A stretch of DNA of 64,000 bases, from assembly GCA_028821605.1 (NCBI GenBank), contig JAPPFM010000056.1, forward strand, positions 135,466 through 199,465. The letters run 5' to 3'. This document shows positions 8,455 to 61,487 of the stretch, piece after piece; within the stretch, counting starts at the first letter, position 1; each line of letters begins with the position of its first letter. The notes under the pieces are model-generated. The model made no database searches and was not told the DNA's origin. It saw nothing but the letters and a program-made list of their open reading frames with translations. The stretch comes from Candidatus Poribacteria bacterium. GTDB taxonomy: Bacteria > Poribacteria > WGA-4E > WGA-3G. Made by a program: the position numbers and the translations under genes.

Positions 8455-9099
8455 GTGAAGGAAAAACGTATGTCATCTATTGCAGCCCGAACCTACCTAA
8501 CCCCAGAAGAATATATCGTTGCCGAACGCAAGGCGACACTCAAAAGCGAATATCTGAGCGGCGAGATCGTCGCAATGTCGGGGGCAAGTGATACACATAA
8601 TCTTATCACGATGAATACGTCAAATGCCCTTTACAATCAATTGGCAGACCGAGGATGCAGAGTCTACGCCAGCGATATGCGCGTCGGAATTAGCGCAGGA
8701 GTTTCCTACTTCTATCTGGATATTGCCGTTACTTGTGATAAACCCCGCTTCGAGGATGACGTTTTCGATACACGCATCAATCCACAGGTTATTATTGAAG
8801 TGCTTTCTGATTCAACCTTAGGCTATGATCAAGGCGAAAAATTCATACGCTATCGGCGACTGGAATCACTTCAAGAATACATCCTTATTTCACAAGATCA
8901 GGTTCAAGTCGATCACTATCTCCGTCAAGGCAAACAATGGGTGCTTACTGAATTCAGCGCACTTGAGGATGTGTTACGGCTTGTTTCAATTGGTGCAGAA
9001 CTCCCCTTGCATCAGGTTTACAGATTCATCGATCTGGAAACCGATGATGCCCTTCAAACCACCCATACCGTCTCAAAAAGGGACTCTATTTCATGCTGA
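8455..9099 (+). CDS. Uma2 family (DUF820) putative restriction-endonuclease-like protein
   Basis: Uma2 hallmarks: YLTPEEYIVAERKA...SEYLSGEIVAMSGASDTHN, CRVYASDMRV, YFYLDIAV, PQVIIEVLSDST. Confidence 0.75.
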   Translation: MKEKRMSSIAARTYLTPEEYIVAERKATLKSEYLSGEIVAMSGASDTHNLITMNTSNALYNQLADRGCRVYASDMRVGISAGVSYFYLDIAVTCDKPRFEDDVFDTRINPQVIIEVLSDSTLGYDQGEKFIRYRRLESLQEYILISQDQVQVDHYLRQGKQWVLTEFSALEDVLRLVSIGAELPLHQVYRFIDLETDDALQTTHTVSKRDSISC

Positions 9100-11141
9100 C
9101 CCTTGAGCAACTCGTCACTTGTGGATTGGAAAAAGCAGAGGCGTTGCAGATAACCGAAGCCGTCAATCGGATATTGCCAACACAGTCCCCAACAGCCTGC
9201 TGGTACGAAATTTCGCGCTACATCCTCACGCCACAACACCCGTTTGCCCTGCACCAATTGCTTTATGAAACAGTATACGCCGACTTTGATCGTACGACAC
9301 ACGGTCCTCCACCTGCATGGTTTCCTACAGATGAAGACATCACCGAAGCAAATATAACGCGTCTAATGGCGGAATTACACATCAAAACCTACCCTGAGTT
9401 TCATGCCTGGTCAATTGCCAATCGTGACACGTTTTGGCAGATGATGATCGACACATTGGGGATCAAAGCAGCAGGCGTATATCCGAAGGCACAACGAGAC
9501 GCAACGGGTATCGCAACAAAACTTGCGAAGCTCAACATCGTCGAAAGCTGCTTTAAGGCACCTAACGATGCCATCGCGATTGTTGCCCAACGCGAAAACG
9601 ACGAAAGGCTGCAAACGCTCACCTATCAGGAACTGGAATCTCTCACAAATCGGGTTGCAAACGGACTTGTTGAAATCGGTATGGAGCAAGGCGACGCTAT
9701 AGCAATTGACATGCCGATGACTGCTGAATCTGTCGCTGTCTATTTGGGGATTGTCAAAGCAGGATGTGTTGTTGTTGGTATTGCCGATAGTTTTGCACCG
9801 GATGAGATAGCTACCCGTCTCCGTATTGGCAATGCAAAAGCAATCTTCACACAGGATTATATCAACAGAGCAAGTAAACGTCTCCCGTTGTATGAAAAGG
9901 TTATCGCTGCAAATGCCCCGAAAGCGATTGTTTTTTCTTCTGAAGGCGGTGACACTGTTGCGCGACCTCAACGTGAAGACGATATGACGTGGGGCGACTT
10001 CCTTAGTGACATGGAGACCTTCACTGCTGTTCCGTGCCATCCTGATGCACATACCAATATCCTTTTCTCCTCCGGCACCACTGGCGAACCGAAGGCGATT
10101 CCGTGGACACATACCACACCGATTAAAACCGCCGTAGATGCCTACCTACACCACGACATTCACCCCGGCGATGTGCTGGCATGGTACACAAATCTCGGTT
10201 GGATGATGGGACCTTGGCTCATCTACGCCAGTTTCATCAACAAAGCCACTATCGCCTTATATGATGGCGTGCCAACTGGGCGTGGCTTCGGTGTTTTTGT
10301 CCAAAATGCGGAGGTCAGCATGCTCGGTGTCGTGCCTACCCTTGTCCGCGCATGGAAGAATACAGGGTGTATGCACGGGCTGGACTGGCGTGCGATTCGA
10401 GCGTTCAGTTCGACGGGTGAATGCTCTAATCCGGAGGAGATGCTTTTCCTCATGTCCCTCGCTGACTATAAGCCGGTGATTGAATACTGTGGTGGCACCG
10501 AAATCGGAGGCGGTTATATCACTGGCACACGCGTCCAACCCGCTGCACCTTCTATGTTCACAACGCCAGCACTCGGTGTGGATTTCCTACTCTTTGATGG
10601 GAACGGGAAACCGACAGAAAACGGCGAAGTTTTCATCATCCCACCCTCGCTCGGTCTCTCTACGAGTTTGCTCAACGCTGACCACAATGAAGTCTATTTT
10701 GCAGGAACGCCGCAACCCAATCTACGCCGCCACGGCGATGCGATTGAGCGGTTAGGCAATGGCTTTGAAACCGAACCTTGGCTTGCGGGGATTAAATATC
10801 GCGTTCACGGTCGGGTTGACGATACGATGAACCTGAGCGGTATTAAGGTAAGTTCGGCAGAGATTGAAGAGGTGCTTAACGTCGTCAGTGAGGTACAGGA
10901 GACAGCAGCGGTCGCTGTCTCACCGAAAGATGGCGGTCCGAGTCAACTCGTCATCTACGCCGTGCTGACAGTATCAGAAACAGCACCCACAAAACAAGAA
11001 CTTCACACGACGTTGCAAACCGCGCTTTCCGCCCATCTCAACCCGTTATTCAGAATTCACGAGGTCGTTATCGTAAACGCATTACCGCGAACCGCTTCTA
11101 ATAAAATTATGCGTCGTCTTTTGCGCCAGCAAGCGATGTGA
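9093..11141 (+). CDS. AMP-binding acyl-CoA synthetase (acetyl-/acetoacetyl-CoA synthetase-like)
   Basis: AMP-binding signature LFSSGTTGEPKAIPWTH, an N-terminal ACS/AACS-like region (ANITRLMAELHIKTYPEFHAWSIANRDTFWQ) and a C-terminal SNKIMRRLL. The ATG overlaps the upstream Uma2 stop by 7 bp. Confidence 0.8.
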   Translation: MLTLEQLVTCGLEKAEALQITEAVNRILPTQSPTACWYEISRYILTPQHPFALHQLLYETVYADFDRTTHGPPPAWFPTDEDITEANITRLMAELHIKTYPEFHAWSIANRDTFWQMMIDTLGIKAAGVYPKAQRDATGIATKLAKLNIVESCFKAPNDAIAIVAQRENDERLQTLTYQELESLTNRVANGLVEIGMEQGDAIAIDMPMTAESVAVYLGIVKAGCVVVGIADSFAPDEIATRLRIGNAKAIFTQDYINRASKRLPLYEKVIAANAPKAIVFSSEGGDTVARPQREDDMTWGDFLSDMETFTAVPCHPDAHTNILFSSGTTGEPKAIPWTHTTPIKTAVDAYLHHDIHPGDVLAWYTNLGWMMGPWLIYASFINKATIALYDGVPTGRGFGVFVQNAEVSMLGVVPTLVRAWKNTGCMHGLDWRAIRAFSSTGECSNPEEMLFLMSLADYKPVIEYCGGTEIGGGYITGTRVQPAAPSMFTTPALGVDFLLFDGNGKPTENGEVFIIPPSLGLSTSLLNADHNEVYFAGTPQPNLRRHGDAIERLGNGFETEPWLAGIKYRVHGRVDDTMNLSGIKVSSAEIEEVLNVVSEVQETAAVAVSPKDGGPSQLVIYAVLTVSETAPTKQELHTTLQTALSAHLNPLFRIHEVVIVNALPRTASNKIMRRLLRQQAM

Positions 11142-11248
11142 CCTTTGCAAAAAGATTGACTTATGCAATTTTTTTAGGTATACTTAACAGATACCCGAGT
11201 GACATACACTTGTTTTTTCTATCACTTTGTGGAAAAGGAGATGTTCTG

Positions 11249-11992
11249 ATGGAAACGCACCCCAATGCACGCCACATCCCTTACGCTCCCACAGAAACTG
11301 CCGACCTATACCCTGAATCGGATGGAAAACCTATGGCTGAGACGGATATGCACGCAGTGGCTATCATCGATTTACGGCAACGTTTTGACGGCTTCTTCGC
11401 GGATAACCCGGATACTTATGTATCGGGGACTCTCATGATGTATGATATAGAGGGCCCCAGCCGCACAGCCGTCTCACCCGATATCCTCGTCTCTTTCGGC
11501 ATAGGCAAGAAACTCCGCCGCACCTATAAGGTGTGGGAAGAGGGAAAGCCGCCAGACTTCGTGATGGAGTTTTCGAGCAAAGGAACGTTTCAAAATGACT
11601 TAGGGCATAAAAAGGCACATTACGCGTCAATGGGAATACCGGAGTATTTTCTCTGCGATATAGATAGACGCTATCTGCCCACGCCGCTGATGGGGTTTCG
11701 CCTCAAAGGTGAGACTTATGAGCGGATACCCGAGAACGTAGATGGTAGTATTCCTTCTGTGACGTTAGGCGTATCGTTCCATCTGTTGGATGAGGGGTTA
11801 GCCGTTTATGCGGAAGCGATGGAACACTGGCTGCAAACGCCTGCAGAGGCAGCAGAGGCAGCAGAGCAGCGTGCGGAACAAGAAGCCGCCGCACACGCGC
11901 GTGAAGCCGCCGCACGCGCCGAAGCGGAAGCGGAAGTCTCGCGCCTGCGCGAGGAGCTCGAGCATCTCAAAGCGCGCTTGTCAGATGACTAA
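11249..11992 (+). CDS. Uma2 family (DUF820) protein with C-terminal Ala/Glu-rich coiled-coil tail
   Basis: Starts METHPNARHIPYAPTETADLYPESDGKPMAETDMH with SD aaggag 7 nt upstream; the track ORF start at 11138 lacks an RBS. The C-terminal tail is AEAAEAAEQRAEQEAAAHAREAAARAEAEAEVSRLREELEHLKARL. Confidence 0.75.
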   Translation: METHPNARHIPYAPTETADLYPESDGKPMAETDMHAVAIIDLRQRFDGFFADNPDTYVSGTLMMYDIEGPSRTAVSPDILVSFGIGKKLRRTYKVWEEGKPPDFVMEFSSKGTFQNDLGHKKAHYASMGIPEYFLCDIDRRYLPTPLMGFRLKGETYERIPENVDGSIPSVTLGVSFHLLDEGLAVYAEAMEHWLQTPAEAAEAAEQRAEQEAAAHAREAAARAEAEAEVSRLREELEHLKARLSDD

Positions 11993-13386: not shown

Positions 13387-14139
13387 ATGGGTATCACCGA
13401 CGCGCAAAAGAAGCAATTGGACGAACAGGGGTGCATCGTCATTCCAGACGTGCTTTCCGACGAGGAGATTGAGGTCTATAGAGCCGATATTCTCAGGTTG
13501 GCAGAAGAGGAGAAGCAGAACGGGTTGGCGCGTCAACATACCGACGGGCGTGGACAGCATGTCCGTTGGTTGGTGAACAAGGGACAGATGTATGAGAAAC
13601 TCGTTGCCAGACCCAAAGTGATGCCCTTCTTTGAGCACCTCCTTGGTCCCGATTATACGTTGAGCACGCTTACCTCGAACATTATTGATCCGGGCGCACC
13701 AGATGGTGGCTACCACGTTGATAGCGTGTTAGGGTCTATGCCGGAGCCGCTGCCCAGTTTCCCACTGGTCGCCAACAGCCTCTGGCTGCTCGACGATTTC
13801 ACACCGGAGAACGGTGGTACACGTCACGTCCCCGGTATCCATCTTCAGCGAATTAAACCGCCCCCAGGCACGACGCACCACCCCGATGAGGTCCGACTCT
13901 CTGCCCCGAAAGGTTCCGTATTCCTGTTCAACGGTGCGATCTGGCATTCTGCGGGTGCCAACAAAACTGATCGGCAGCGCATCGCGTTGATCTGTTTCTG
14001 TTGCCGTTCTTTTATCAAACCGATGTTTGACTTCGTGCATCATCTCAACCCGGAAGTCGTCGAGCGCGCCACCCCAACCATGCGCCGAATCTACGGGTTT
14101 GATTCCCAACCTCAACCCCCAGATCAACCCACGCGGTAA
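13387..14139 (+). CDS. phytanoyl-CoA dioxygenase (PhyH) family Fe(II)/2-oxoglutarate oxygenase
   Basis: Facial-triad context GGYHVDS ... AIWHSAGAN, with an arginine in KTDRQRIAL. Confidence 0.75.
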   Translation: MGITDAQKKQLDEQGCIVIPDVLSDEEIEVYRADILRLAEEEKQNGLARQHTDGRGQHVRWLVNKGQMYEKLVARPKVMPFFEHLLGPDYTLSTLTSNIIDPGAPDGGYHVDSVLGSMPEPLPSFPLVANSLWLLDDFTPENGGTRHVPGIHLQRIKPPPGTTHHPDEVRLSAPKGSVFLFNGAIWHSAGANKTDRQRIALICFCCRSFIKPMFDFVHHLNPEVVERATPTMRRIYGFDSQPQPPDQPTR

Positions 14140-14186
14140 TTACATTTCACTGACGGGGTTTCTTAACTTCTCCTTTCATGATGGAT

Positions 14187-14212
14187 GCCCTCTTCGTTGG
14201 CGAGGGTTTTGG
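14187..14212 (+). terminator. weak intrinsic terminator (gccctc-ttcgttggc-gagggtttt)
   Basis: 5-6-bp stem, 9-nt loop, then TTTT, 48 nt after the PhyH stop. Confidence 0.35.
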
Positions 14213-14513
14213 AAGAACTCACACGCGGTTCTTCCTAACCTCGCAAATAAAACTGTACCCTTAACCGTAAATCTCACGTTATAACTTAAAGCGCATGCTT
14301 TAGCAATTTCTGACCTTTATGCAATAACCTATAAAAGGTCGTTATCTGATACCATTTTTAATTGAATACCTTTCAATGTGCATGTAGCATAAACTTTTAG
14401 TTTGTGCCACCCTATTTCCTTTCAGAAAAGTTGTTCATGCGATATTTATTTTCAGAAATGGTATGAGAACTGAATAATCGCTTCCTAAAAGGAGAACAAG
14501 AGGAGATTCTATT

Positions 14514-14939
14514 ATGACTATGATAACCGTTCAGTGGCAGAGATGTCTCAAGAACTCTCTTTGGTGTCAATTCAATGAAAAACTCTTGAGCAATGGTCGT
14601 TTTGAGACCCGTCTCGGTGACCATAGTGTCAATATTAGCGGCATCTATATCATCTGGACAGGGATTGACAACCGCACGGTACTTAAAGTCGGAAGCGGAA
14701 TTATTAAGGATAAATTGGAAGAACATCTCAGAGATCCTGAAATTCAAGCCTATAAACCTACACGATTATACGCTACGTGGGCTTCTACTCTATCTGTAAT
14801 TGGAGCAGAAGAGATCCAAAAAGGCGTAGAGAAGTTTCTTGATATTGTATTTAAACCGAAATTGGTAGAACACTTACCTGATGTTGATCTTGTAATGGTC
14901 AACCTACCTCGGTGGAATAAACCGGTGCCCCCACTGTGA
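14514..14939 (+). CDS. GIY-YIG nuclease-domain small protein (UPF0213/YhbQ-like core with 40-aa N-terminal extension)
   Basis: Motifs SGIYIIW...VLKVGSG.IKDKLEEH follow the GIY-YIG consensus. A good SD gaggag lies 9 nt upstream. The antisense ORF 14412..14747 was rejected. Confidence 0.45.
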   Translation: MTMITVQWQRCLKNSLWCQFNEKLLSNGRFETRLGDHSVNISGIYIIWTGIDNRTVLKVGSGIIKDKLEEHLRDPEIQAYKPTRLYATWASTLSVIGAEEIQKGVEKFLDIVFKPKLVEHLPDVDLVMVNLPRWNKPVPPL

Positions 14940-15178
14940 GAAGTCCAACTATAGTGGATTTCAAAATTGATGAAACACGCCACAGCGGGCGAGGGAATCT
15001 TGCCCCTACGAGAGGTGGTCTCCGCGCAACCCTGACATAGGAGATTGCCTGCTGTGTTTCTAACCTCACCTAATTCCGAAAACCGGTAATTGTCCTTTCC
15101 TCATACAAGAGCAGGCTCCAACTCGCGATCATGGAACCAACAGAAACCCGCATGGCTCTGGCTATGTCTTGTTTTTAC

Positions 15179-15208
15179 TTGCCTTCATCAGAATTGGCAT
15201 GCTATACT
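15179..15208 (+). promoter_or_regulatory. sigma70-like promoter candidate (TTGCCT-18 nt-TATACT) upstream of the RM-fusion gene
   Basis: The hexamers are read directly from the sequence, 59 nt upstream of the ATG at 15267. Confidence 0.3.
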
Positions 15209-15266
15209 GATGCCATATCCACGTCCTTTTTTAATGACCCAAGCCTAAATATTTACAGAAAATATC

Positions 15267-18224
15267 ATGCCAAACCGACGCGAAACAACAATCACAAATG
15301 AATTGGTGAACATCTTACGAAACATGCGCCACGGATGGGAGCTCGAAACGGAAGTCAACGCTTTCATCCGAGGCAATAGCGAACTTGATGCCATTGTCAT
15401 TGAACACGGTAGAGAACCCGTCGGGATTGAAGCAAAATTCGCAACCACCACCAATGCCAGAAATTTGATTGAACAGGCAGAAACAAGGCTTGTTCTGGAA
15501 CTTGAAACGGAATATCATGTCGTTGGAAAAACGCTCAATAACGTCATGGCAATCCTGTACCCTGACCGTTTTAAGACGATGCAGGGAAAGGATATCAACC
15601 CACACCTACGCGCTGCGGATGACCTACAATACAAACTCGTCAATACAGTCGGTAATACCGTAGGACACTTCCCAGAAAATGGATGGGCGGAAGGCACTGT
15701 AGGCGACATCGCAAACGCGCTCCACGTTGGCGCAATGCCGACCTCTCAACTTGAAGAGGCAGCGGAAGAGATGGAGAAAAGTATCAACAAGGCAGCTTAC
15801 CTTCTTGAAGATGCTATCGTTGATCATCCTGCCATCGCCAAGAAAATTGAGACGATTCTGCACCAAGAGGTTTCCTCTAAAACGGAAGATAACACAGAAG
15901 AAAAACCGAATGTCCAGACACTCCGCATGGCAGCATTGATTATCACCGATGCTTTTGTCTTCCAAAGTTCCCTTGCCGGTAAAGCAGAGATGGAATCTGT
16001 TCGCTCACTCCGACAACTCCTACCGATAATTGATTATGCTGATGTTATTGAGGACTGGAACACGATTCTCAAGGTTAATTATCGCCCAATCTTTGAGGAT
16101 GCCCGAAACCTCGTTGAGGCACTCGCTACGGATGACAGACTTGTCAAATATATCTTAAAACTCCTCTGTGAGGCTGCAAAAGACCTTGTTGATACCGGTA
16201 TTGCCCAGATTCACGAACTCGCGGGTATTGTGTTCCAAAAACTCATCACCGACAGGAAATACGTCAAGGCGAACTATACGCTTCCCGAAAGCGCGGTGCT
16301 GCTCTCCACCCTTGTGATGCCTGAACTGCCGAAGGGTAAACTCCCGAAAGTGGCAGACTTCGCTTGCGGAACAGGGGCACTCCTCAACGGTGTCTATCAA
16401 CGTATTCTGTCTCTGTATGAGCAATCGGGCGGCAACGGTAAAGACATCCATCAGCGAATGTTAGAGAAGCACATCGGTGGTGTAGATATTATGCCGAATG
16501 CGACACACCTCACCGCTGCTGCGCTTGCGAGTACGTATGCAGGTGTCAAAATCGGCGGCACGCAAATAGTTACTGCCCCTTACGGTGTAATCGATACTGG
16601 CGGCTACGCGATCGGCTCATTGGAATTGCTTGATGATATAAAACTATTTGACACAGAGGCAGAGCAGATAGGCGGTGAGGAAAATACCGTCGTTAAACTC
16701 CAACAGACATTCCAACACGGTGATATTGATATTGTCATACAAAATCCTCCCTTCACAAGGCCGGGATCGGATAGCAATACCGAGGTGCCAAAATCTACTT
16801 TCCAAGGCAGTGATCGACCCAAAGAAGATCAGAAGTTGATGCAGGCCACGCTGAAATCTAAAAATACAAGAGTAACTGATGGCGCTAACGGCTTCGTTTC
16901 TGCTTTCGTAGACCTTGCTGACAAAAAACTGAGGAACGGTGGTACAATGGGTTTCATTTTGCCACTGACAGTGTTGAGATCTCCGACTACGCAAGAACTG
17001 CGCGATATGTGGGCAAACGAATACCACAACGTAGTCGTGATAACCATGGCGCAGGCAAAAGCAGAAGACTGCACATTCTCTGCAGACACAACTATGGCAG
17101 AATGTATCATTGTCGCAACGAAAGGCATAGATGAAAACACTGGACGTGGGAAGTTTATCTGTCTTGCTGATAAACCACATAGTTCTCTTGAATCCGTTGA
17201 AATAGCAAATCGGGTTAATAGAAGCGACGAAGCACGAAGACTTGAAGATGCCCCTAACGGCGGTGATACTATTAACGTTGGAAACACAAATAACGGTCTA
17301 ATGTTGGATTGCCCAATCAAAGAAGGTGTTCCGTGGATCGCAACACGAGCAAGATCCGTGGCATTACTACAGATGGCAAACAAGCTGACAATTGGGAAAC
17401 TGCACTTTCCGATGTCAAGAGAGACTTTACCGATTCACATTTGCCAAGTACAAGATATTGCAAAGGTGGGTTCAGCAGATTCTTATCGGGAAAAAGATGG
17501 CCCGTTTATTATGGTTGAGGATTATGAGCCAAATAGTGATGGTTATGACGCATTGTGGAGAGTTGATGCTCCTTTACAGCGTGCTATGATTGCCGCACCG
17601 GATTCTACTGCGATACCACGTTCAAATGACAATGCTATGGTCAAGCGGATTTTAGACTGTTTCAGCAGAACTCACTATCATATTAATCTGAGATTTACCT
17701 CAAATTCGATTATTTCTTCCTTGACAGAAAAGCCCTCCATCGGTGTACGTTCAATGATTAACGTTTTACTCAATGACCAGCGTCACGAAATTGCTTGGAC
17801 GGTGTGGTGCAACTCAAGTTTAGGTTTGTTTTGTCACTGGGCACACAGCAGTAAACAACAGATGGGACGTGGCACCCTACGTCAACAAACATTAGAGACA
17901 CTGCCTACGCTGGATGTCCGTCAACTCTCCGATGAGGCGTTAGCAAACGCTGAAAAGGTGTTTGAACGGTTGAAATATAAACGTATGCTGCCTTTCAATG
18001 AGTGCGATCATGACCCCGTACGCAAAGAATTAGACTGCTGTCTACTAACAGAGGTGTTGGGAATTACGAGCGATAACGTGCTTGAATCCATGCAGACACT
18101 CCGCGAGATGCTCTGTGCTGAACCGAGTATTCACGGTGGGAAACAGTCTAAGTGCGACCTTGATACCGAGTTGGCGATGCTTAAGAAGAAGCGGATTGCT
18201 TTTCCGAGTTGGTATGTTGATTAA
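15267..18224 (+). CDS. MmeI-like single-chain restriction-modification enzyme candidate (Type IIG/IIL): N-terminal PD-ExK nuclease, gamma-class N6-adenine MTase, C-terminal TRD
   Basis: Order of motifs: D41...E55-A-K57 (ELDAIVIEHGREPVGIEAKF), then MTase motif I DFACGTGALL, motif IV NPPF, and GGTMGFILP, followed by about 380 aa of presumed target-recognition domain. The 985-aa length and domain order match MmeI-family enzymes. Confidence 0.65.
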   Translation: MPNRRETTITNELVNILRNMRHGWELETEVNAFIRGNSELDAIVIEHGREPVGIEAKFATTTNARNLIEQAETRLVLELETEYHVVGKTLNNVMAILYPDRFKTMQGKDINPHLRAADDLQYKLVNTVGNTVGHFPENGWAEGTVGDIANALHVGAMPTSQLEEAAEEMEKSINKAAYLLEDAIVDHPAIAKKIETILHQEVSSKTEDNTEEKPNVQTLRMAALIITDAFVFQSSLAGKAEMESVRSLRQLLPIIDYADVIEDWNTILKVNYRPIFEDARNLVEALATDDRLVKYILKLLCEAAKDLVDTGIAQIHELAGIVFQKLITDRKYVKANYTLPESAVLLSTLVMPELPKGKLPKVADFACGTGALLNGVYQRILSLYEQSGGNGKDIHQRMLEKHIGGVDIMPNATHLTAAALASTYAGVKIGGTQIVTAPYGVIDTGGYAIGSLELLDDIKLFDTEAEQIGGEENTVVKLQQTFQHGDIDIVIQNPPFTRPGSDSNTEVPKSTFQGSDRPKEDQKLMQATLKSKNTRVTDGANGFVSAFVDLADKKLRNGGTMGFILPLTVLRSPTTQELRDMWANEYHNVVVITMAQAKAEDCTFSADTTMAECIIVATKGIDENTGRGKFICLADKPHSSLESVEIANRVNRSDEARRLEDAPNGGDTINVGNTNNGLMLDCPIKEGVPWIATRARSVALLQMANKLTIGKLHFPMSRETLPIHICQVQDIAKVGSADSYREKDGPFIMVEDYEPNSDGYDALWRVDAPLQRAMIAAPDSTAIPRSNDNAMVKRILDCFSRTHYHINLRFTSNSIISSLTEKPSIGVRSMINVLLNDQRHEIAWTVWCNSSLGLFCHWAHSSKQQMGRGTLRQQTLETLPTLDVRQLSDEALANAEKVFERLKYKRMLPFNECDHDPVRKELDCCLLTEVLGITSDNVLESMQTLREMLCAEPSIHGGKQSKCDLDTELAMLKKKRIAFPSWYVD

Positions 18225-18260
18225 TTTAAACTACCTGCAGGAAATCCGGAGAAATAAATT

Positions 18261-19067
18261 ATGCCAAACAAACGGTATCAAGAATTACTATTCTCATCTC
18301 AGAAAAAACTGGATATTTCTGCTGAGCAGATCAGAAAATTAATCCCTACCTCAGGTGAAATAGGTACACTAATTGAAGAAATGTTCAGGTCCTATCTGGC
18401 AGAAGTATTACCTGAAAAAATAGGGATATCAAACGGATTTGTAATGGATTCGGAAGGTGGCGAATCAAGGCAAATGGATATTATCCTATATGATAAAATG
18501 AACACACCTCGCATATTTACCAGTACCGCTGCTCAAGTTTTCCCAGTTGAATCTACATTCGCTTGTGGTGAAATTAAGACTCAACTCAATGCAAGAGAAC
18601 TAAAAGATAGTTTTGAAAAATGCTTAAGTTACAAGAATCTACATCGAAAAGCTTATTTTGATCAAAATGATAGCGATATAAAGTACTTCCATAAATTGTT
18701 CGGAGAAGAAAAAGAACATTGGGAATCAATTTTTTTCACTATTTCTGTTGAGTGTATGACTGGTAGTGGTCTGTTGATGGAATACCAACGTATTATTGAG
18801 GCAGAAAGCCTACCTCTTCATAAGAGAATAGATACAATTTTTTCATTATATAGCACCGATGGGAATAACATAATAGCAAATTGTAGTGAAGAAGGACTCG
18901 ATTTTCTTCCTAATAAGAATGGTCAGTTTCGTGCTATATCAGTGGAAAAATCCTGGGCATTGTTTATCAATCTGTTATTGAGATACATGGTTAACGTACC
19001 CGCGGAACCTATTAATATGATTAAATATGCTGGGAGATCCCTTAGTGATTACGGAATTATAAATTAA
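18261..19067 (+). CDS. AT-rich orphan hypothetical protein with PD-(D/E)xK-like core (QMDIILYD ... ACGEIK)
   Basis: About 35% GC and A/T-ending codons, against about 50% for the window. The putative catalytic strands are D-hydrophobic (MDIILYD) and E-x-K (GEIKTQ). No family could be assigned by eye. Confidence 0.4.
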   Translation: MPNKRYQELLFSSQKKLDISAEQIRKLIPTSGEIGTLIEEMFRSYLAEVLPEKIGISNGFVMDSEGGESRQMDIILYDKMNTPRIFTSTAAQVFPVESTFACGEIKTQLNARELKDSFEKCLSYKNLHRKAYFDQNDSDIKYFHKLFGEEKEHWESIFFTISVECMTGSGLLMEYQRIIEAESLPLHKRIDTIFSLYSTDGNNIIANCSEEGLDFLPNKNGQFRAISVEKSWALFINLLLRYMVNVPAEPINMIKYAGRSLSDYGIIN

Positions 19068-19119
19068 GATTCTGGATCCAGTATATTCTGATCATACTTA
19101 CTATTTTGGAGAGATTGAC

Positions 19120-19518
19120 ATGCAAATTGAAGATTATTTTAACTTTTTGGCAGAAGATGATATTCGCATTAAAGGCACACGTATAGGCATAGAATCTGTC
19201 CTAGACGAGTATATTAACTACAAACAAACAGCAGAGACAATTGCTGAACGTTTTCATACGGTTACACTGGAACAGGTTTATGCTACAATCCTATATTATC
19301 TGCAAAATAAAGAAAAAGTTGGTGCGTATTTGGAGGATTATCTGGAATATTGCCGAAAAGCTCGAGAAGAGCAGGAGAAAAATCCTTCTCCTGGTGTTAT
19401 TCGCCTGCGTGAACTTATAGCAGAAAGGCGAAAAACTTCTGATAATTCACGCCCGGATATCTCGAAAAACAGTTCCGAAAGCACAACACCATCTCCATCC
19501 AAATATGAACGGGAATAA
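19120..19518 (+). CDS. DUF433 domain protein (antitoxin-like partner of DUF5615)
   Basis: IRIKGTRIGIESVLDEY...ERFHTVTLEQVYATILYY matches the DUF433 pattern (GTRI.V..VL....EEI...YP.LT.E.V.AAL.YY). Confidence 0.6.
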   Translation: MQIEDYFNFLAEDDIRIKGTRIGIESVLDEYINYKQTAETIAERFHTVTLEQVYATILYYLQNKEKVGAYLEDYLEYCRKAREEQEKNPSPGVIRLRELIAERRKTSDNSRPDISKNSSESTTPSPSKYERE

Positions 19519-19520
19519 AG

Positions 19521-19880
19521 ATGCGTCGGTATCTGTTGGACGAACATATTCCGCCAATCTACCGCACGCAATTGCTTTATCATGAATCCTCACTAACGGT
19601 CTTGGAGATTGGCGATCAAGGCGTACCTGCAAGAGGAACATCCGACCCGGAAATCCTGCGCTGGTGTGAGCAGAACGACTTCAGTTTGATAACAAACAAT
19701 CGGAAAAGTATGCCCCAACATCTCGCTGACCATCTATCAGCAGGACATCATATACCAGGCATTTTCACGATTAATCTCAATGCGTCAATAGGATTGATAA
19801 TTGAACAATTGATTCTCATTGCTGGAGCATCCGATGAAGATGAATATATTGACCAAATCGTCTTCATCCCACTTAGATGA
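19521..19880 (+). CDS. DUF5615 (Mut7-C/PIN-like) putative toxin
   Basis: LLDEHIPPI...SDPEILRWCEQNDFSLITNN matches the DUF5615 consensus. The start lies 3 nt after the DUF433 stop, so the two form a classic coupled pair. Confidence 0.6.
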   Translation: MRRYLLDEHIPPIYRTQLLYHESSLTVLEIGDQGVPARGTSDPEILRWCEQNDFSLITNNRKSMPQHLADHLSAGHHIPGIFTINLNASIGLIIEQLILIAGASDEDEYIDQIVFIPLR

Positions 19881-19904
19881 GGAAAAGGATGGAAATCTCC
19901 AAAG

Positions 19905-20693
19905 TTAGTTTCGTTCGATCATTGACTGCTTGAGTGAACCCCACGTTACCGCCAGTTTTCCAATAGGTTCAACCGCCAACGCCAGTGTATGCAATCGCCT
20001 CACGTCGGCATCACTTAACGCCCCCTCAAAAATGGCAACTTCGTCAATAGCACCGGCGTACCAGATACCGCCCAAGTGCTGTGTGTAGGCGATTGTCGGC
20101 TTGTGGGCGGCACCGTAAGCGATACTGATTGGATCGGGTGCCGGAGTCGTCTTTTTTAGTTCACCGTCCAGGTAGATACGGACAGATTTTTTGCTCTCAA
20201 CAACTCCAACAACATGATGCCACTCGCCATCGGCGGGGAACGGCACATAAGCGGAGGGCCAATGCTTTGCCGCGTTTGCTGTGTCCGCACGAATCCAGAT
20301 GCCAACACTATTGTTATCAAGCAGTTGGATGCCGTAGTTGTATTTGTCATAGATCGGATTTCGTGTGCCAAGGGTCGGCTTAATAATCGCCTCCATCGTC
20401 ACAGAAGGGAAGAAGAGGTCCTCACCCATTCGTATCAAATCAACAGCACCGTCAAAATCAAGGGCTTCACTGCGAAACCCATCTATTTGGTTGGGTTTGC
20501 CTGTAATGGTTCCGCCGTTCTTTCCGAAAACATCTTTAACGTCTTTGCCTTGAACGGTGTTTTTGTCAAGGGTCCAAAGTGCCGCAAGCCCCATTTTGAC
20601 TCTTGGATCCTCGGCTACTGCGGATTGAATCACCGTGATAGAAATCACGAAACCGACTAAAAGCAGAGCGGAGAGAGACAATTTCGTTTTCAT
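19905..20693 (-). CDS. secreted LamG/concanavalin-A-like jelly-roll domain protein
   Basis: Signal peptide MKTKLSLSALLLVGFVISITVIQSAVA. LamG-type core (ALDFDGAVDLI...; WHHVVGVVESKKSVRIYLDGEL). Paralog of the next gene. Confidence 0.65.
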   Translation of the reverse strand: MKTKLSLSALLLVGFVISITVIQSAVAEDPRVKMGLAALWTLDKNTVQGKDVKDVFGKNGGTITGKPNQIDGFRSEALDFDGAVDLIRMGEDLFFPSVTMEAIIKPTLGTRNPIYDKYNYGIQLLDNNSVGIWIRADTANAAKHWPSAYVPFPADGEWHHVVGVVESKKSVRIYLDGELKKTTPAPDPISIAYGAAHKPTIAYTQHLGGIWYAGAIDEVAIFEGALSDADVRRLHTLALAVEPIGKLAVTWGSLKQSMIERN

Positions 20694-55595: not shown

Positions 55596-58500
55596 TTGAT
55601 GGTGAAAATCGGCAAATACCTCCCTATAGTGATCCTAATATGCGTCGGATTAGCGTTTGCAACAGCAGATGCCCAAGAAAACCTTGCACAACAGGTGTCC
55701 GCTATTTTTCAGCAAAACTGCTTGAATTGTCATGGACCCTCCGGTTCCTTTAAGGAAGCACTCCTGCTTGACCGCACCGCGCTTATTGATACGCAGGTCA
55801 TCATCCCAGGAAACCCAGAAAACTCAGAATTCTATAAACGACTCCTTGGACCGACTGAGAAGGGTCCGCAAATGCCGCTCAATCTACCACCGCTCTCACC
55901 AGAAGCCATTGAAACGATTGCCCGTTGGATTACCGCAGGCGCGCCAGATTGGGATGTGCAGCACGACATCAATTTCATAACCACAGATACAATACTCAAT
56001 ACCATCCGAAACCATCTAAAGTCGCTGGATCCGTTTGATCGTCCCTCCGCACGCTATTTTACAATGACGCATCTCTATAATGCCGGTGAAAGCCCTGAAA
56101 CTCTCAGCGACTATCGGATCGCGCTCTCTAAACTGATAAATAGCCTCTCGTGGAAGTTTGAGATCACGAATCCAACACCTATTGATGAAGCACAAACAAT
56201 CTTCCATATTGACCTACGGCGTTACGAATGGAATAATATCAGAACCGATGTGTGGACACAAATTGAGCAAGTATATCCGTACAACATTGTGTTTGATCCA
56301 GAAACACAAGCCGGTCTCCTTGAAAAACTGACACACCTGCAGACTGAAATGGGCAGCACAGTGCCGTTTGTCCATGTCGATTGGTTTCTTACGACCGCGT
56401 CGTTGCCACCACTCTATCACGACATTTTAGGTCTTCCACAAACAGACCGTGTGTTAGAGGCACAACTGGAGGTAAATGTTGCGAGCAATATCAGGAACGC
56501 CCCGGGGATAAATGTCTGGCGTGCGGGTTTCAACGATTCGGGTGTCTCCTCAAACAACCGCGTTGTGGAACGCCATACGTCTCGGTATGGTGCGTATTGG
56601 AAAAGTTACGACTTTGCTGGGAGCGTAGGTTCACAGAATATCTTTACGCACCCACTTGATTTCACACACGATGGTGGCGAAATTATCTTCAATCTCCCCA
56701 ACGGATTGCAGGCGTACTTGCTGGTTGACGTTAATGGTAACCGGCTGAACGACGCACCAATTGACATCGTTAGGAACCTTGCTGCGAGCAATCCGACAGT
56801 CCGGAACGGTCTCTCGTGTATTGGGTGCCATACGCAAGGCATGAAGAAGTTTGAAGATAGTGTGCGAGTGGCGATTGAACAAGATGACAACCCGCCGTAT
56901 AACAAAGAACAGGCACTACGCCTCTACGCTAAACAGTCAGTGCTTGATAATCTGGTTGCAAAAGATACACTAAGGTTTCAGCAGGCATTGGAAAAGATTG
57001 GCGGTCCGTTTGCGGATGATGCATCCAGACAACGCTTCTTCAAGCAACATGAAAATGAACCCATCCAACGGTTTCATGAATCGTTTCAATCACCCCTAAA
57101 TGCCTCGGACGCTGCTGCCGCTGTTGGATTGGAAACAGAAGCATTCCTCACACAGATCCGTGAGAAACAGAGTTTAAAAAACTTAGGACTACAAACGCTC
57201 ATAGATGTGAAGGGCACCGTGAAACGGGATGCATGGACATCTAACTTTGACGATGTAATTTCTGCGTTGAATACCCCTGATAGCATCCTTCCGCCAGTCG
57301 TGCAGCGTCCAGAACGCATTCCGGGTGCTGGTGTATACATTCCCGACCCGAACCTCCGCGCGGCAATTGCCGAAGCACTCGGCAAAGCACCTGGTGATCC
57401 GATTACGGTAGAAGATATGGCGATGTTGGCTGATCTGGACGCAAGGAATTATGATGAGCCGCGCAAGGAAAATATTAACAATTTAACGGGACTTGAGTTC
57501 GCAGTGAATCTCAAATTTCTACATATTGGTGGTAATTCAGTATCAGATTTATCGCCCCTTGCGGGGCTAATAAAACTAGATTTCTTAGATGTCCAGGATA
57601 ACTTAATATCAGATATATTGCCGCTTAAAGGATTGACTCGTCTAAAAGATTTAGTTCTTACTGATAACGTGATATCTGATTTTTCTCCCCTTATGGAGTT
57701 AACAACATTAAAAGAGGTATGGATTTCTGACAGCCCGGCATTTGACCTGTCACTACTTGGAAGATTGATTAACCTTGAGGGTGTGCATGCTTGGGATGTC
57801 CCCATAAAAGATCTATCCCCTCTTGCAGGATTGACAAAATTGAGATGGTTAGACTTTGGTCGTATTCCAATATCAGATCTTGCACCGTTAGCGAACCTAA
57901 CAAACCTGAGAAAACTGATATTTTACGATTGCGGCATAGAAGATATCTCGTCTCTGGCAGGATTGAAAGAGTTGAGATCTCTTATAATTCCTCACAACGC
58001 GATCTCAGATCTCTCGCCGTTGGCGGGGTTAACTCGTTTAGAAACTTTACATATCGTCAATAACCAAATATCAGATGTATCGCCCTTGGCAGGGTTAACC
58101 AACTTAGGCGAACTAAACCTCCGCAACAACTCAATAACAGATTTCTCACCTTTAGAGGCACTTTCCCAAAATACAAATATACTTACTGGTGAAGTGGCTA
58201 TACCCGATCTAAACCTCCGCGATGCAATTGCAGAGGCACTCGGTAAAGGTGATACTACAGTTGTTTCAATTACCGCTGAGGAAATGGCTACATTGACAAG
58301 TCTTGTTGTCAATGACAGAGGTATTCAAGATTTGATAGGACTTGAGTTTGCTATAAATTTGGAAAACCTATGGTTTGAACACAATCAGGTATCTGACCTA
58401 TCTTCTATCGCTAAATTAACCAAACTGCGCGAGTTACGGTTTGTAAGCAATCAGGTATCTGACCTATCCTCTATTGCTAAATTAACCAAACTGCGCGAGT

Positions 58501-61487
58501 TAAGGATTGATCACAATCCTATATCCGACTTATCGCCTATTGCAGGTTTCACGCAATTAGAAGTACTATCAATAAACGAGTTCCCACTATCTGACATATC
58601 ACCACTTTCAGGATTAATTAACTTGAAAACCTTTCACTCTTGGGGCAGCCCGATCGTTGACATGTCACCGCTCGTCAACTTATCGAAACTGGAAACACTT
58701 GATCTCTGCGGTGCCAAATTAGCAAATATACCATCTTTAGATAACTTAAAAAGTTTGAAAACACTGTATCTTGTTGATTGCAATATTTCGGATGTATCGT
58801 CCTTGTCAAGTTTAAGAGGTTTAGAACATTTTACAAAACTGAATCTCCATAGAAACAACATTATCTCAGACATATCGCCTTTAGCAGTGCTAACTAACCT
58901 GAAATGGCTAAATCTTTCATGGAATAATATCTCGGATGTATCTGCTTTAACAGACCTAACCAATCTGAAATGGCTAAGCCTTGAATTAAACAATGTTTCT
59001 GACGTATCTCCTTTAGCAAAGTTAACTAACTTGGAATGGCTAAATCTTACCAAGAATCCAATACCAGATTTCTCCGCTTTAGCGGTTCTTTCACAAAGTG
59101 CAAATATTCTTACTGGCGAGGTTGTTATCCACGATCCGAACCTCCGCGATGCAATTGCAGAGACACTCGGTAAAGGTGATACTACAGTTGTTTCAATTAC
59201 CGCTGAGGAAATGGCTACATTGACAAGTCTTGTTGCCAATAACAGAGGCATTGAAGATTTGACGGGGCTTGAGTTTGCAACAAATATAAACAGTCTGGAC
59301 CTCAATGGCAATCAGATTAGTGACATTTCACCCTTATCAGAATTGGTTAACTTGTCTCATTTAGAGCTTCGCCGTAACCAGATTAGCGATATCTCAGCCC
59401 TCACAGGATTAACCAACATAGTTTCTTTAAATATACGAGTCAATCCACTATCTGACATCTCATCCCTCGCGAATCTAATGAAAATGGACTTTTTAGAGGT
59501 TACTGATACCAACGTTTCTGACCTGTCACCGCTAGCAGAATTGGATAATCTGCGCGAATTTAAATCTTGGCACAGTCCTATATCTGACCTCTCTCCATTG
59601 GCACATCTAACCGTTATAGATGTATGTGGTGCCCCCATATCGGATCTCTCGGCACTGACAAACTCAACAAATTTGAGAGAGTTGTATCTTGTCAGAAACA
59701 ATATCTCAGATGTTTCATCCTTAGCGGGGTTAACAGGTTTAATACGTCTGAGTCTCGAGGGGAACAAAATATCGGATATATCGCCGCTTGTGGGTTTAAC
59801 GAACTTGAAATCACTAGCACTTCAGCACAACTCAATATCCGATTTTTCGCCTTTGGAACGATTAACTAAGACAACAGCTATATCTCGAGCCTTCAATCCT
59901 GGTTCACCCACAGGGGGTGCGAAGATAGAGGGACCTTGGCTATGGGTGACGGTCCCGGGAGATCACCTTGACAGCAGCACGGATTTACTCGCAGAAGCTA
60001 GTGGAGGTGACGTAACAGAACAGAACATTGCCATCAATGGTGTATCAGAAGGAATGTCTGTGGGACGCAATGTCTGGACAACTGGCAAGATTGCGCCTGA
60101 AGGACGCGCTAACATCACCGAAATGCTCAATTCTATCGGCATGGGAAACTATAGAGATAGTGGCAACCGTATCGTCTATGGTTCTGTAACCTTGGATTCA
60201 CCGCGTGAACAGAAGACAACAATGTTCGTGGGAAGCGATGACGGAATAAAGGTCTGGCTCAACGGTGAATTGGTTCACCAAGCACTTTTTTGGCATAGAG
60301 CTGAAGATTACCAGTATTTTTTCCCTGTCACCTTGAAACGTGGAAAAAATGTCTTGTTGGTCGCAGTTGACGGCAGGGGTTGGAACTCGAACAACGGTTT
60401 TTTTGGATTTGAAGTGGGTACAGAATACACTCTGCCAAACCCGCGTGTCAGATATATCTTCTCTGAGCCTTCAATCCATTCAGGTGATACCTTCACCCTC
60501 CAAATTGAAGCAGAAGATGTTTACGATTTAGCGGGATGGCAATTTAATATTGCGTTCGATTCTACCCCACTCGAAGCCGTTGAAGTCAACGAAGGCGATT
60601 TCCTCAAGACAGATGGTGGAACGACCTTCTTTCAGCAGGGTACAATTGATAACACTATAGGCAAAATTACCAAACTCAGTTCAGCAAGACTCAGCGAAGA
60701 CGGGGTCAGCGGTAAAGGTACGCTTCTGTCGGTGACATTTACAGCAAAAACAGCTGGACAAACGCAGTTGAAACTCGAAAATTTTCAACTCGCTGCTATC
60801 ACCGGTGTATCTATCCCTGCGGGTCCACATGAGGTTGTTATCACTGTAGAAGGGCAACTCGCTACTGGAGATGTGAATCGAGATGGACAGGTAAATATCC
60901 TGGATATGGTGCTTGTCGCTCGACACTTCGGGAAAACCGTGTCTGCCAACTCGGAAATTGACATGAATGGTGATGGTGTTGTCAATATCCAGGACCTTAT
61001 CATCGTGGCGCAACATCTCGGTGAATCAACCACCGCTGCATCACCTTCCGTCACTGCAGCAATAGACAACGGCGAACTAACGCCTGCGATGATACAAGCC
61101 TGGATCACGCAAGCGCAAATTGAAAACGACGGTTCCATCGCCTTCCAACAGGGCATCGCCAATCTTGAACGACTTTTGGCACTATTTATCCCAGAAGAAA
61201 CCGCCTTACTTCACAACTATCCAAACCCGTTCAACCCAGAGACGTGGATACCCTATCAACTGTCCGAACCGGCTGAGGTTACCTTGCGTATCTATGCTGT
61301 GAATGGCAGTTTGATCCGAACATTAGCATTAGGACAAATGCCCGCCGGCATCTACCAAACCCGCACCCGTGCCGCATATTGGGACGGCAAAAATAAGGTA
61401 GGCGAATCGGTCGCGAGTGGTGTCTATTTTTACACACTAACTGCAGGCGACTTTAACGCCACGAAAAAAATGTTGATAAGGAAATAG
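55596..61487 (+). CDS. giant (1963-aa) secreted multidomain protein: planctomycete-type cytochrome-c (PSCyt1-like, CxxCH) module, three leucine-rich-repeat blocks, beta-sandwich domain, cohesin-like domain, dockerin, Por_Secre_tail-like C-terminus
   Basis: Signal peptide. CLNCHGPSG...IIPGNPENSEFYKRLLGP...QMP (PSCyt1 pattern) and a second CIGCHT. About 37 22-aa LRRs (L.L..N.ISD.SPLA.LT.L). TFTLQIEAEDVYDLAGWQFNIAFDS...EGDFL (cohesin-like). DVNRDGQVNILDMVLVARHFG / DMNGDGVVNIQDLIIVAQHLG (dockerin). C-terminus NYPNPFNPETWIPYQL...SGVYFYTLTAGDFNATKKMLIRK. Confidence 0.8.
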   Translation: MMVKIGKYLPIVILICVGLAFATADAQENLAQQVSAIFQQNCLNCHGPSGSFKEALLLDRTALIDTQVIIPGNPENSEFYKRLLGPTEKGPQMPLNLPPLSPEAIETIARWITAGAPDWDVQHDINFITTDTILNTIRNHLKSLDPFDRPSARYFTMTHLYNAGESPETLSDYRIALSKLINSLSWKFEITNPTPIDEAQTIFHIDLRRYEWNNIRTDVWTQIEQVYPYNIVFDPETQAGLLEKLTHLQTEMGSTVPFVHVDWFLTTASLPPLYHDILGLPQTDRVLEAQLEVNVASNIRNAPGINVWRAGFNDSGVSSNNRVVERHTSRYGAYWKSYDFAGSVGSQNIFTHPLDFTHDGGEIIFNLPNGLQAYLLVDVNGNRLNDAPIDIVRNLAASNPTVRNGLSCIGCHTQGMKKFEDSVRVAIEQDDNPPYNKEQALRLYAKQSVLDNLVAKDTLRFQQALEKIGGPFADDASRQRFFKQHENEPIQRFHESFQSPLNASDAAAAVGLETEAFLTQIREKQSLKNLGLQTLIDVKGTVKRDAWTSNFDDVISALNTPDSILPPVVQRPERIPGAGVYIPDPNLRAAIAEALGKAPGDPITVEDMAMLADLDARNYDEPRKENINNLTGLEFAVNLKFLHIGGNSVSDLSPLAGLIKLDFLDVQDNLISDILPLKGLTRLKDLVLTDNVISDFSPLMELTTLKEVWISDSPAFDLSLLGRLINLEGVHAWDVPIKDLSPLAGLTKLRWLDFGRIPISDLAPLANLTNLRKLIFYDCGIEDISSLAGLKELRSLIIPHNAISDLSPLAGLTRLETLHIVNNQISDVSPLAGLTNLGELNLRNNSITDFSPLEALSQNTNILTGEVAIPDLNLRDAIAEALGKGDTTVVSITAEEMATLTSLVVNDRGIQDLIGLEFAINLENLWFEHNQVSDLSSIAKLTKLRELRFVSNQVSDLSSIAKLTKLRELRIDHNPISDLSPIAGFTQLEVLSINEFPLSDISPLSGLINLKTFHSWGSPIVDMSPLVNLSKLETLDLCGAKLANIPSLDNLKSLKTLYLVDCNISDVSSLSSLRGLEHFTKLNLHRNNIISDISPLAVLTNLKWLNLSWNNISDVSALTDLTNLKWLSLELNNVSDVSPLAKLTNLEWLNLTKNPIPDFSALAVLSQSANILTGEVVIHDPNLRDAIAETLGKGDTTVVSITAEEMATLTSLVANNRGIEDLTGLEFATNINSLDLNGNQISDISPLSELVNLSHLELRRNQISDISALTGLTNIVSLNIRVNPLSDISSLANLMKMDFLEVTDTNVSDLSPLAELDNLREFKSWHSPISDLSPLAHLTVIDVCGAPISDLSALTNSTNLRELYLVRNNISDVSSLAGLTGLIRLSLEGNKISDISPLVGLTNLKSLALQHNSISDFSPLERLTKTTAISRAFNPGSPTGGAKIEGPWLWVTVPGDHLDSSTDLLAEASGGDVTEQNIAINGVSEGMSVGRNVWTTGKIAPEGRANITEMLNSIGMGNYRDSGNRIVYGSVTLDSPREQKTTMFVGSDDGIKVWLNGELVHQALFWHRAEDYQYFFPVTLKRGKNVLLVAVDGRGWNSNNGFFGFEVGTEYTLPNPRVRYIFSEPSIHSGDTFTLQIEAEDVYDLAGWQFNIAFDSTPLEAVEVNEGDFLKTDGGTTFFQQGTIDNTIGKITKLSSARLSEDGVSGKGTLLSVTFTAKTAGQTQLKLENFQLAAITGVSIPAGPHEVVITVEGQLATGDVNRDGQVNILDMVLVARHFGKTVSANSEIDMNGDGVVNIQDLIIVAQHLGESTTAASPSVTAAIDNGELTPAMIQAWITQAQIENDGSIAFQQGIANLERLLALFIPEETALLHNYPNPFNPETWIPYQLSEPAEVTLRIYAVNGSLIRTLALGQMPAGIYQTRTRAAYWDGKNKVGESVASGVYFYTLTAGDFNATKKMLIRK

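Follow-up and report, generated by a model that had tools for sequence, protein, structure and literature searches.

A solitary Candidatus Poribacteria gene likely to encode a single-chain Type IIG restriction-modification enzyme with an apparently exchangeable recognition half

A 64,000-nucleotide stretch of a Candidatus Poribacteria genome (contig JAPPFM010000056.1; the whole stretch is called the window below) carries a gene that, judged from sequence comparisons and a predicted structure, is likely to encode a solitary, bifunctional, single-polypeptide restriction-modification enzyme, Type IIG by architecture. The 985-amino-acid (aa) product is 100% identical to a "hypothetical protein" (OYL97_21020) in a metagenome-assembled genome (MAG) of Candidatus Poribacteria, a sponge symbiont. 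A first-pass annotation, made from the letters alone, had described a 985-aa open reading frame (ORF) joining a PD-(D/E)xK nuclease, a gamma-class N6-adenine methyltransferase and a C-terminal target recognition domain (TRD) in a single chain. Translation bears out the ORF, and the combination of domains is supported by a structure model, by a Foldseek match to the enzyme BpuSI, by the conservation of acidic residues in the nuclease domain and by the solitary position of the gene. In addition, comparison with related loci indicates, at the sequence level, that the recognition half of the protein has been replaced by recombination between alleles. The gene and its predicted parts are the following.

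15267..18224, + strand: candidate single-chain restriction-modification enzyme; ATG-started, uninterrupted ORF, stop codon included, 985 aa
15267..15701, + strand: predicted N-terminal PD-(D/E)xK nuclease domain, about aa 1-145 (AlphaFold2 model and family alignments)
15282-15284, 15387-15389, 15429-15431 and 15435-15437, + strand: predicted catalytic codons of E6, D41, E55 and K57, respectively (conservation and model)
15702..16271, + strand: predicted all-helical spacer or connector, about aa 146-335 (helices at 145-326 in the model)
16272..17171, + strand: predicted methyltransferase domain, about aa 336-635, with motif X at 16275-16286, motif I (DFACGTG) at 16356-16376 and motif IV (NPPF) at 16743-16754
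16707..17906, + strand: block apparently exchanged between alleles, about aa 481-880 (per-block identity profiles)
17184..17771, + strand: predicted alpha/beta target recognition domain, spanning roughly aa 640-835 and more variable than any other part of the chain
17778..18221, + strand: predicted C-terminal helical bundle, about aa 838-985 (helices at 838-974 in the model)

Domain architecture of the predicted protein

We modeled the protein with AlphaFold2. With an alignment of 50 diverse relatives the model reached a mean predicted local distance difference test score (pLDDT) of 89.5 and a predicted template modeling score (pTM) of 0.91, while an alignment of close homologs only gave a pLDDT of 38.6 and an unusable model. 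In the former, the core of the N-terminal domain consists of a helix (residues 2-18), three strands (25-30, 40-45 and 52-58), a second helix (64-74) and a further strand (92-98), that is, an alpha-beta-beta-beta-alpha-beta topology in which D41 starts beta2 and E55 and K57 end beta3. All the motifs listed in the first-pass annotation were located: D41 and E55-A-K57 in this domain, followed by DFACGTG (motif I, from D364 to residue 370), NPPF (motif IV, N493 to F496) and GGTMGFILP (G558 to P566). We found, in addition, that motif X (Y337-T-x-P340) precedes motif I and that the variable TRD is C-terminal, which together define the gamma-class motif order. Pfam Eco57I (PF07669) is the sole Pfam match above threshold, with 35.7 bits against a gathering threshold of 25.3 over residues 402-594. 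Thus, according to the model, the nuclease and methyltransferase domains share one chain, the architecture by which Type IIG enzymes are defined.

The region of about 380 aa that had been assigned as a whole to the TRD does contain a C-terminal TRD, but in the model this domain covers only residues 640-835 or so and is followed by a separate helical bundle, in which W847, G853, W858, R868, R919, D923 and E952 are invariant across the family alignment. The best Foldseek match in the PDB is BpuSI (3s1s, E=1.9e-18), aligned end to end, and a search of the Foldseek viral fold library returned generic Eco57I-like methylases only.

BpuSI (RM.BpuSI, Type IIG/IIS, 3S1S) has the same order of nuclease, helical connector, gamma-class N6-adenine methyltransferase and TRD. 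Its published metal-binding and catalytic set, E21/D60/E76/K78, with a connector at residues 175-289 (PMC3185434), corresponds to E6/D41/E55/K57 of the window protein, with a Glu on helix 1, an Asp on beta2 and an ExK on beta3 in both. The predicted domain boundaries also nearly coincide with those published for MmeI, namely nuclease 1-155, spacer 156-300, methyltransferase 301-620, TRD 621-825 and C-terminal bundle 826-919 (PMC4833311). MmeI shares the order of spacer, gamma-class methyltransferase, TRD and bundle, the lack of a second methyltransferase and of a consistent partner, and the placement of an Asp at the start of beta2 and an ExK at the end of beta3 (motif D70-x9-E80-x-K82). In contrast, M.TaqI-like modules (CamA, 7LNI; M.BseCI, 7QW5; M.TaqI, 1AQI), like the Pfam Eco57I domain, comprise the methyltransferase only, and M.TaqI-like proteins have no counterpart of the N-terminal nuclease, helical spacer or C-terminal bundle predicted here.

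Conservation of the nuclease site

We then counted the residues occupying the predicted catalytic positions in 116 aligned sequences, comprising the window protein and 115 full-length relatives that are 29-61% identical to it. E6 is retained in 107 sequences, D41 in 113 and E55 in 113 (92-97%), and the spacer between the Asp and the Glu measures 13 residues in 94 of the 116. The mean identity among relatives over the nuclease domain is only 26%, so that the retention of these three acidic residues points to selection on catalysis and argues, at the sequence level, for an active nuclease. Position 57 behaves differently: it is a Glu in 91/116 sequences (78%) and a Lys in 21/116, the clade of the window protein being among the Lys carriers. 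The family consensus accordingly reads E-x(~34)-PD-x13-(I/V)ExE/K. BamHI likewise has a PD...ExE-type site. Motifs I and IV of the methyltransferase are invariant in the family.

The annotation had named the best homologs as the place to look, asking if they keep the N-terminal catalytic D/E/K and if they belong to BREX PglX or Type I HsdM. The homologs retain E6, D41 and E55 and are neither PglX nor HsdM proteins, but most of them carry Glu rather than Lys at position 57. At a further acidic position, E29, which closes beta1, 106 of the 116 sequences have Glu or Gln, and its place matches that of a conserved Glu of MmeI (PMC2731913). MmeI (Type IIL; 5HR4, and DrdV, 7LO5) differs from the window protein in the spacing of Asp to ExK (x9 as opposed to x13), and its ExK contrasts with the ExE of most members of the family studied here.

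Exchange of the recognition half between alleles

Residues 1-425 are 90-100% conserved within Poribacteria, and identity falls to 61-80% over residues 500-850. In 23 of 117 close homologs, compared with the window protein, the contrast is much sharper, with 89-99% identity over residues 1-335, 42-48% over the TRD and 45-60% over residues 481-560. A near-identical N terminus joined to a divergent TRD does not fit gradual divergence. Clustering of the TRDs resolved three types with 95, 13 and 10 members, which are 44-52% identical to one another, while the N-terminal halves (residues 1-335) of proteins with different TRD types can be up to 100% identical. The exchanged block extends from shortly before motif IV (NPPF), through the TRD, to about residue 880.

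The same pattern is found at the level of loci, for which we examined 27 Poribacteria loci and the contexts of eight distant homologs (35 related loci in total; individual loci are numbered L001 onward). Thirteen of the 23 intact genome loci have a TRD of another type than the window, with TRDs 43-48% identical and residues 1-335 80-95% identical to those of the window protein. Two of these genes, in L020 and L023, occupy the syntenic position of the window gene and yet carry an alternative TRD. A TRD that is both the fastest-diverging part of the protein and present in three swapped types is expected of a restriction specificity module under diversifying selection. Such an apparent exchange of a whole module differs from the point substitutions documented for MmeI, and the finding is new here.

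Degraded copies were found at three of the 27 loci: in L022 (6001-8953) the reading frame is shifted near aa 162-198, in L025 (6001-8069) aa 663-844 are deleted and the TRD is lost, and in L026 (6001-7287), which lies in a complete chromosome, the gene is truncated after aa 429. The accessions for L025 and L026 are JAJDXV010000087 and OZ253447, respectively. A database search with the TRD only also gave many short C-terminal fragments; all its matches were fragments of the same Poribacteria family, with no characterised enzyme among them, and they thus offer no prediction of specificity.

A family distinct in sequence from MmeI, BpuSI and Eco57I

A HMMER search of 1.84 billion representative sequences retrieved 2770 relatives at E<=1e-3, of which 688 at E<=1e-30, corresponding at the latter threshold to a family of about 690 clusters at 50% identity. 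The top 150 relatives mostly measure 930-1030 aa, share 29-61% identity with the window protein and align with it from about residue 5 to about residue 960. This uniform length and end-to-end alignment indicate a large family of one fixed architecture. The window protein shares at least 74% identity with more than 120 clusters (90% identity) of about 985 aa. Recoverable source names are all "hypothetical protein" or "N-6 DNA methylase," and Pfam Eco57I matches 39 of 50 relatives.

The first-pass annotation had placed the protein in the architecture of the MmeI family. The domain layout holds, as described above, whereas membership by sequence does not. The Pfam MmeI models gave no match to the window protein at E<=1, MmeI_Mtase matched only one of 50 family members and weakly so (E=0.005), and neither sequence nor profile searches of the PDB retrieved MmeI (5HR4); MmeI-family membership was rejected on these grounds. 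Since sequence searches miss MmeI, the resemblance is architectural and probably mechanistic. Nuclease relatives were likewise absent from the results of PDB sequence and profile searches, whether these used the whole protein or its N-terminal domain. By these comparisons the family is uncharacterised, and its sequences set it apart from MmeI, BpuSI and Eco57I. Systems of this kind are well known, but the family itself is unstudied and, as far as sequence tells, unrelated to the characterised Type IIG and IIL families.

Relatives also occur outside Poribacteria. A 73%-identical copy (L016 6001-8958, CBDCJZ010000003.1) lies on a 2.25-Mb contig labeled Owenweeksia sp. (Bacteroidota), reflecting either horizontal transfer or a mislabeled or misbinned genome, and a sponge-derived Chloroflexota MAG holds a 33%-identical relative (P0364). 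Two relatives with 23-25% identity are carried by mobilizable plasmids, the Sulfuricystis plasmid pSTJ1 (L036) and the Aminobacter plasmid pUSP4 (L037); one adjoins PRTRC-system genes and the other a gene for an ArdC-like zincin metallopeptidase, a neighbor that we take to suggest a plasmid leading-region or anti-restriction context. A megablast of the region against plasmids and Escherichia coli genomes found nothing.

Weighing of alternative readings

Several points weigh against the reading of the gene as an active restriction-modification enzyme. Neither Pfam families nor PDB chains match the sequence of the N-terminal domain significantly, and the assignment of this domain to the nuclease fold is drawn from predicted topology and residue conservation. 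Scanning 28 N-terminal domains against Pfam at E<=5 returned scattered noise only. An hhalign comparison with the FokI cleavage domain did align the catalytic PD...ExK register, at a nonsignificant probability of 0.2% (E=0.32). Glu at position 57 in 78% of the family means that the chemistry may differ across its members. The protein is also unusually conserved across Poribacteria (at least 67% identity) and syntenic in many genomes, and a domesticated role outside defense could produce such conservation and synteny as well. Finally, our literature searches found no publication on the family and none on Poribacteria methylomes.

One alternative, which we regard as unlikely, is that the gene effectively encodes an orphan or domesticated N6-adenine methyltransferase, whose nuclease-like domain is inactive or serves DNA binding or regulation. 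The conservation and synteny across many Poribacteria genomes would fit such a protein, as would the solitary, partnerless gene and the naming of the plasmid homologs simply as "N-6 DNA methylase" or "hypothetical protein." YeeA-type homologs of MmeI methylate or bind DNA without cutting it. Moreover, MmeI homologs lacking the nuclease motif did not cleave (PMC2731913). Against this alternative stands the retention of E6, D41 and E55 in nearly all relatives of an otherwise poorly conserved domain. The exchange of TRDs and the decay of some gene copies likewise speak against it, as both typify restriction systems rather than housekeeping methylases.

A second alternative, which we consider improbable, is a two-gene system in which the 985-aa protein provides methylation and specificity and the product of the next gene acts as the endonuclease. 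This neighbor, overlooked in the first-pass annotation, is the following.

18261..19067, + strand: DUF6602 / PD-DExK (NucC-like) nuclease gene, 268 aa (Pfam DUF6602, 6.6e-23; PADLOC PD_DExK, 2e-35, NucC)

The two genes lie on the same strand with a gap of 36 bp, the second strongly matches PD_DExK/NucC nuclease models, and the same pair occurs in L008, L009 and L014, where the DUF6602 proteins are 68-74% identical to that of the window. However, at about 20 of the 24 intact Poribacteria loci no DUF6602 gene follows the methylase gene, and none is present in any of the eight distant contexts. In L004 the slot is empty and the methylase gene directly precedes the next syntenic gene, and elsewhere the slot holds unrelated genes. 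Such a patchy distribution marks the DUF6602 gene as optional cargo rather than an obligate partner, and the 985-aa protein bears a conserved nuclease motif of its own. A DUF6602 protein has been described as a single-gene, stand-alone defense system named "Damona" (bioRxiv 10.1101/2024.07.02.601686). The DUF6602 gene is therefore probably independent cargo, and its product may be a stand-alone Damona-like defense protein.

Least probable, and largely refuted, is that the protein is the methyltransferase subunit of a multi-gene system, either BREX PglX, MADS MAD2 or Type I HsdM, since the scores fall far below the cutoffs (MAD2, NCBIfam NF047738, 29.5 bits against 720; BREX-1 PglX, 23.4 bits against 500, matching residues 361-420 only), PglX/MAD2/HsdM-type matches are confined to the region binding S-adenosylmethionine (SAM), no BREX, MADS, HsdS or HsdR genes were found in the scanned window ORFs, including any mad genes nearby, or in the 35 related loci, the TRD is fused to the protein along with an N-terminal nuclease motif, and PglX/BrxX (8C45, 8Q56, 9EWZ) differs in having no PD-(D/E)xK motif.

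In line with a solitary restriction-modification enzyme, which is the reading we favor, Pfam scans of the flanking genes and of the largest ORFs elsewhere in the window revealed no other methyltransferase or specificity gene, as the first-pass annotation had stated for the adjacent genes, and the eight distant homologs stand alone among housekeeping genes.

Proposed mode of action and significance

Methylation, cleavage, protection of one strand, the distance of the cut and the reading of a recognition sequence are here inferred from the sequence and the model. We propose that a short and probably asymmetric DNA site would be read jointly by the TRD and the second half of the methyltransferase domain, and that in this site the gamma-class methyltransferase would flip an adenine and N6-methylate it using SAM, so that host DNA is marked as self. 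Type IIG enzymes cut and methylate the same site, usually with stimulation of cleavage by SAM. The host would probably be protected in the manner of Type IIL enzymes, of which the MmeI family methylates one DNA strand only and cuts about 20/18 nt from its site. Unmethylated foreign DNA would be cut by the N-terminal PD-(D/E)xK domain in a Mg2+-dependent reaction involving E6, D41, E55 and K57, at a fixed distance that the helical spacer would set. Because each chain has one catalytic site, two molecules would probably cooperate in a double-strand break. New specificities could then arise through recombinational exchange of the recognition half, about aa 481-880, between near-identical alleles.

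More broadly, and with rather less confidence, we tentatively view this protein as the first to be examined from a large, unnamed family of solitary proteins combining nuclease, spacer, methylase and TRD, unrelated in sequence to MmeI, BpuSI and Eco57I and carrying mostly a PD...ExE site, in which specificity would be reprogrammed by swapping a cassette from motif IV to the TRD. The cassette-like exchange of TRDs and the ExE variant of the catalytic motif in most relatives are its most notable features. To our knowledge, rational re-engineering of specificity has been achieved, among restriction enzymes, only for single-chain restriction-modification enzymes, all in work on the MmeI family, and a second, sequence-unrelated family of the same plan would widen this toolbox. 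If each TRD type reads a different one-strand N6-methyladenine motif, the family would offer a second independent scaffold, beside MmeI, for engineering restriction specificities. The three TRD types would represent natural variants, with motifs readable from the long-read methylomes of their sponge-symbiont hosts; complete Poribacteria chromosomes with the gene include OZ244821, OX639973, OZ220722, OZ244563 and OZ242381. For the biology of sponge microbiomes, the locus would represent a defense gene that Poribacteria have retained with a diversifying recognition half, next to a slot in which other defense genes accumulate. If its TRD types do read different motifs, the family would also be a marker of strain-level diversification of phage defense in sponge symbionts.

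Gene neighborhood and upstream region

Many Poribacteria genomes have the methylase gene at one shared site, flanked by a PhyH gene and a LamG/PhyH block; in other genomes it lies elsewhere. The downstream slot, where the window has the DUF6602 gene, otherwise contains a 1440-aa TPR-GreAB-C-PIN protein with a DUF433 domain at its C terminus (L001, 10316-14638; L015, 9121-13449; L021, 9115-13413), a Piwi-domain prokaryotic Argonaute (pAgo) (L013, 9393-11552), or an unannotated protein of 258-279 aa (L020, 9022-9861; L027, 9079-9855), which in L002 is divided between two ORFs. Beyond it, the window carries the following gene pair.

19120..19880, + strand: DUF433 / DUF5615 gene pair, 19120-19518 and 19521-19880 (Pfam matches)

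This pair resembles a toxin-antitoxin module. In 12 of the 27 Poribacteria loci, among them L005 (at 9059), L011 (at 9056) and L012 (at 9060), DUF433 matches follow the methylase gene at a distance of 0.1-8 kb; several of the 12 loci are non-syntenic. Because some DUF433/DUF5615 loci have unrelated flanks, the methylase gene and the pair may travel together as a small island. A search for repeats that could bound such an island, around 13900-20100, yielded nothing convincing. The surrounding regions carry defense genes, namely the NucC-like nuclease, the pAgo and the TPR-PIN system, and the slot that the methylase gene and the DUF433/DUF5615 pair enclose looks like a hot spot for the integration of defense genes.

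Upstream of the methylase gene, the first-pass annotation had proposed a sigma-70-like promoter.

15179..15208, + strand: sigma-70-like hexamers TTGCCT-18-TATACT with a TG-extended -10, weak evidence for a promoter

The hexamers are present as described, but promoter-like matches occur in the region at chance frequency (12 observed against 12.5 expected from shuffled sequence), and the site is kept only in L004, the upstream similarity among orthologs stopping about 15 nt before the ATG. The window has a gap of 1.1 kb between the PhyH gene and the methylase gene (14140-15266), which it shares only with L004 and which contains a 141-aa ORF (14514-14939) with no Pfam or PADLOC match. In L001, L002, L008 and L014 the distance between the two genes is only about 15 nt.

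Further from the locus, two genes of the Uma2 family ("putative restriction endonuclease"; 8455-9099 and 11138-11992, both + strand) flank a gene for an AMP-binding enzyme, and Uma2 pairs also adjoin the distant homolog in L040. Large eukaryote-like repeat proteins are typical of sponge symbionts. Near its two ends the window encodes an 803-aa protein with LDL-receptor class B repeats, NHL repeats and a dockerin domain (20-2431, + strand) and a 1963-aa leucine-rich-repeat protein with cohesin and dockerin domains (55596-61487, + strand).

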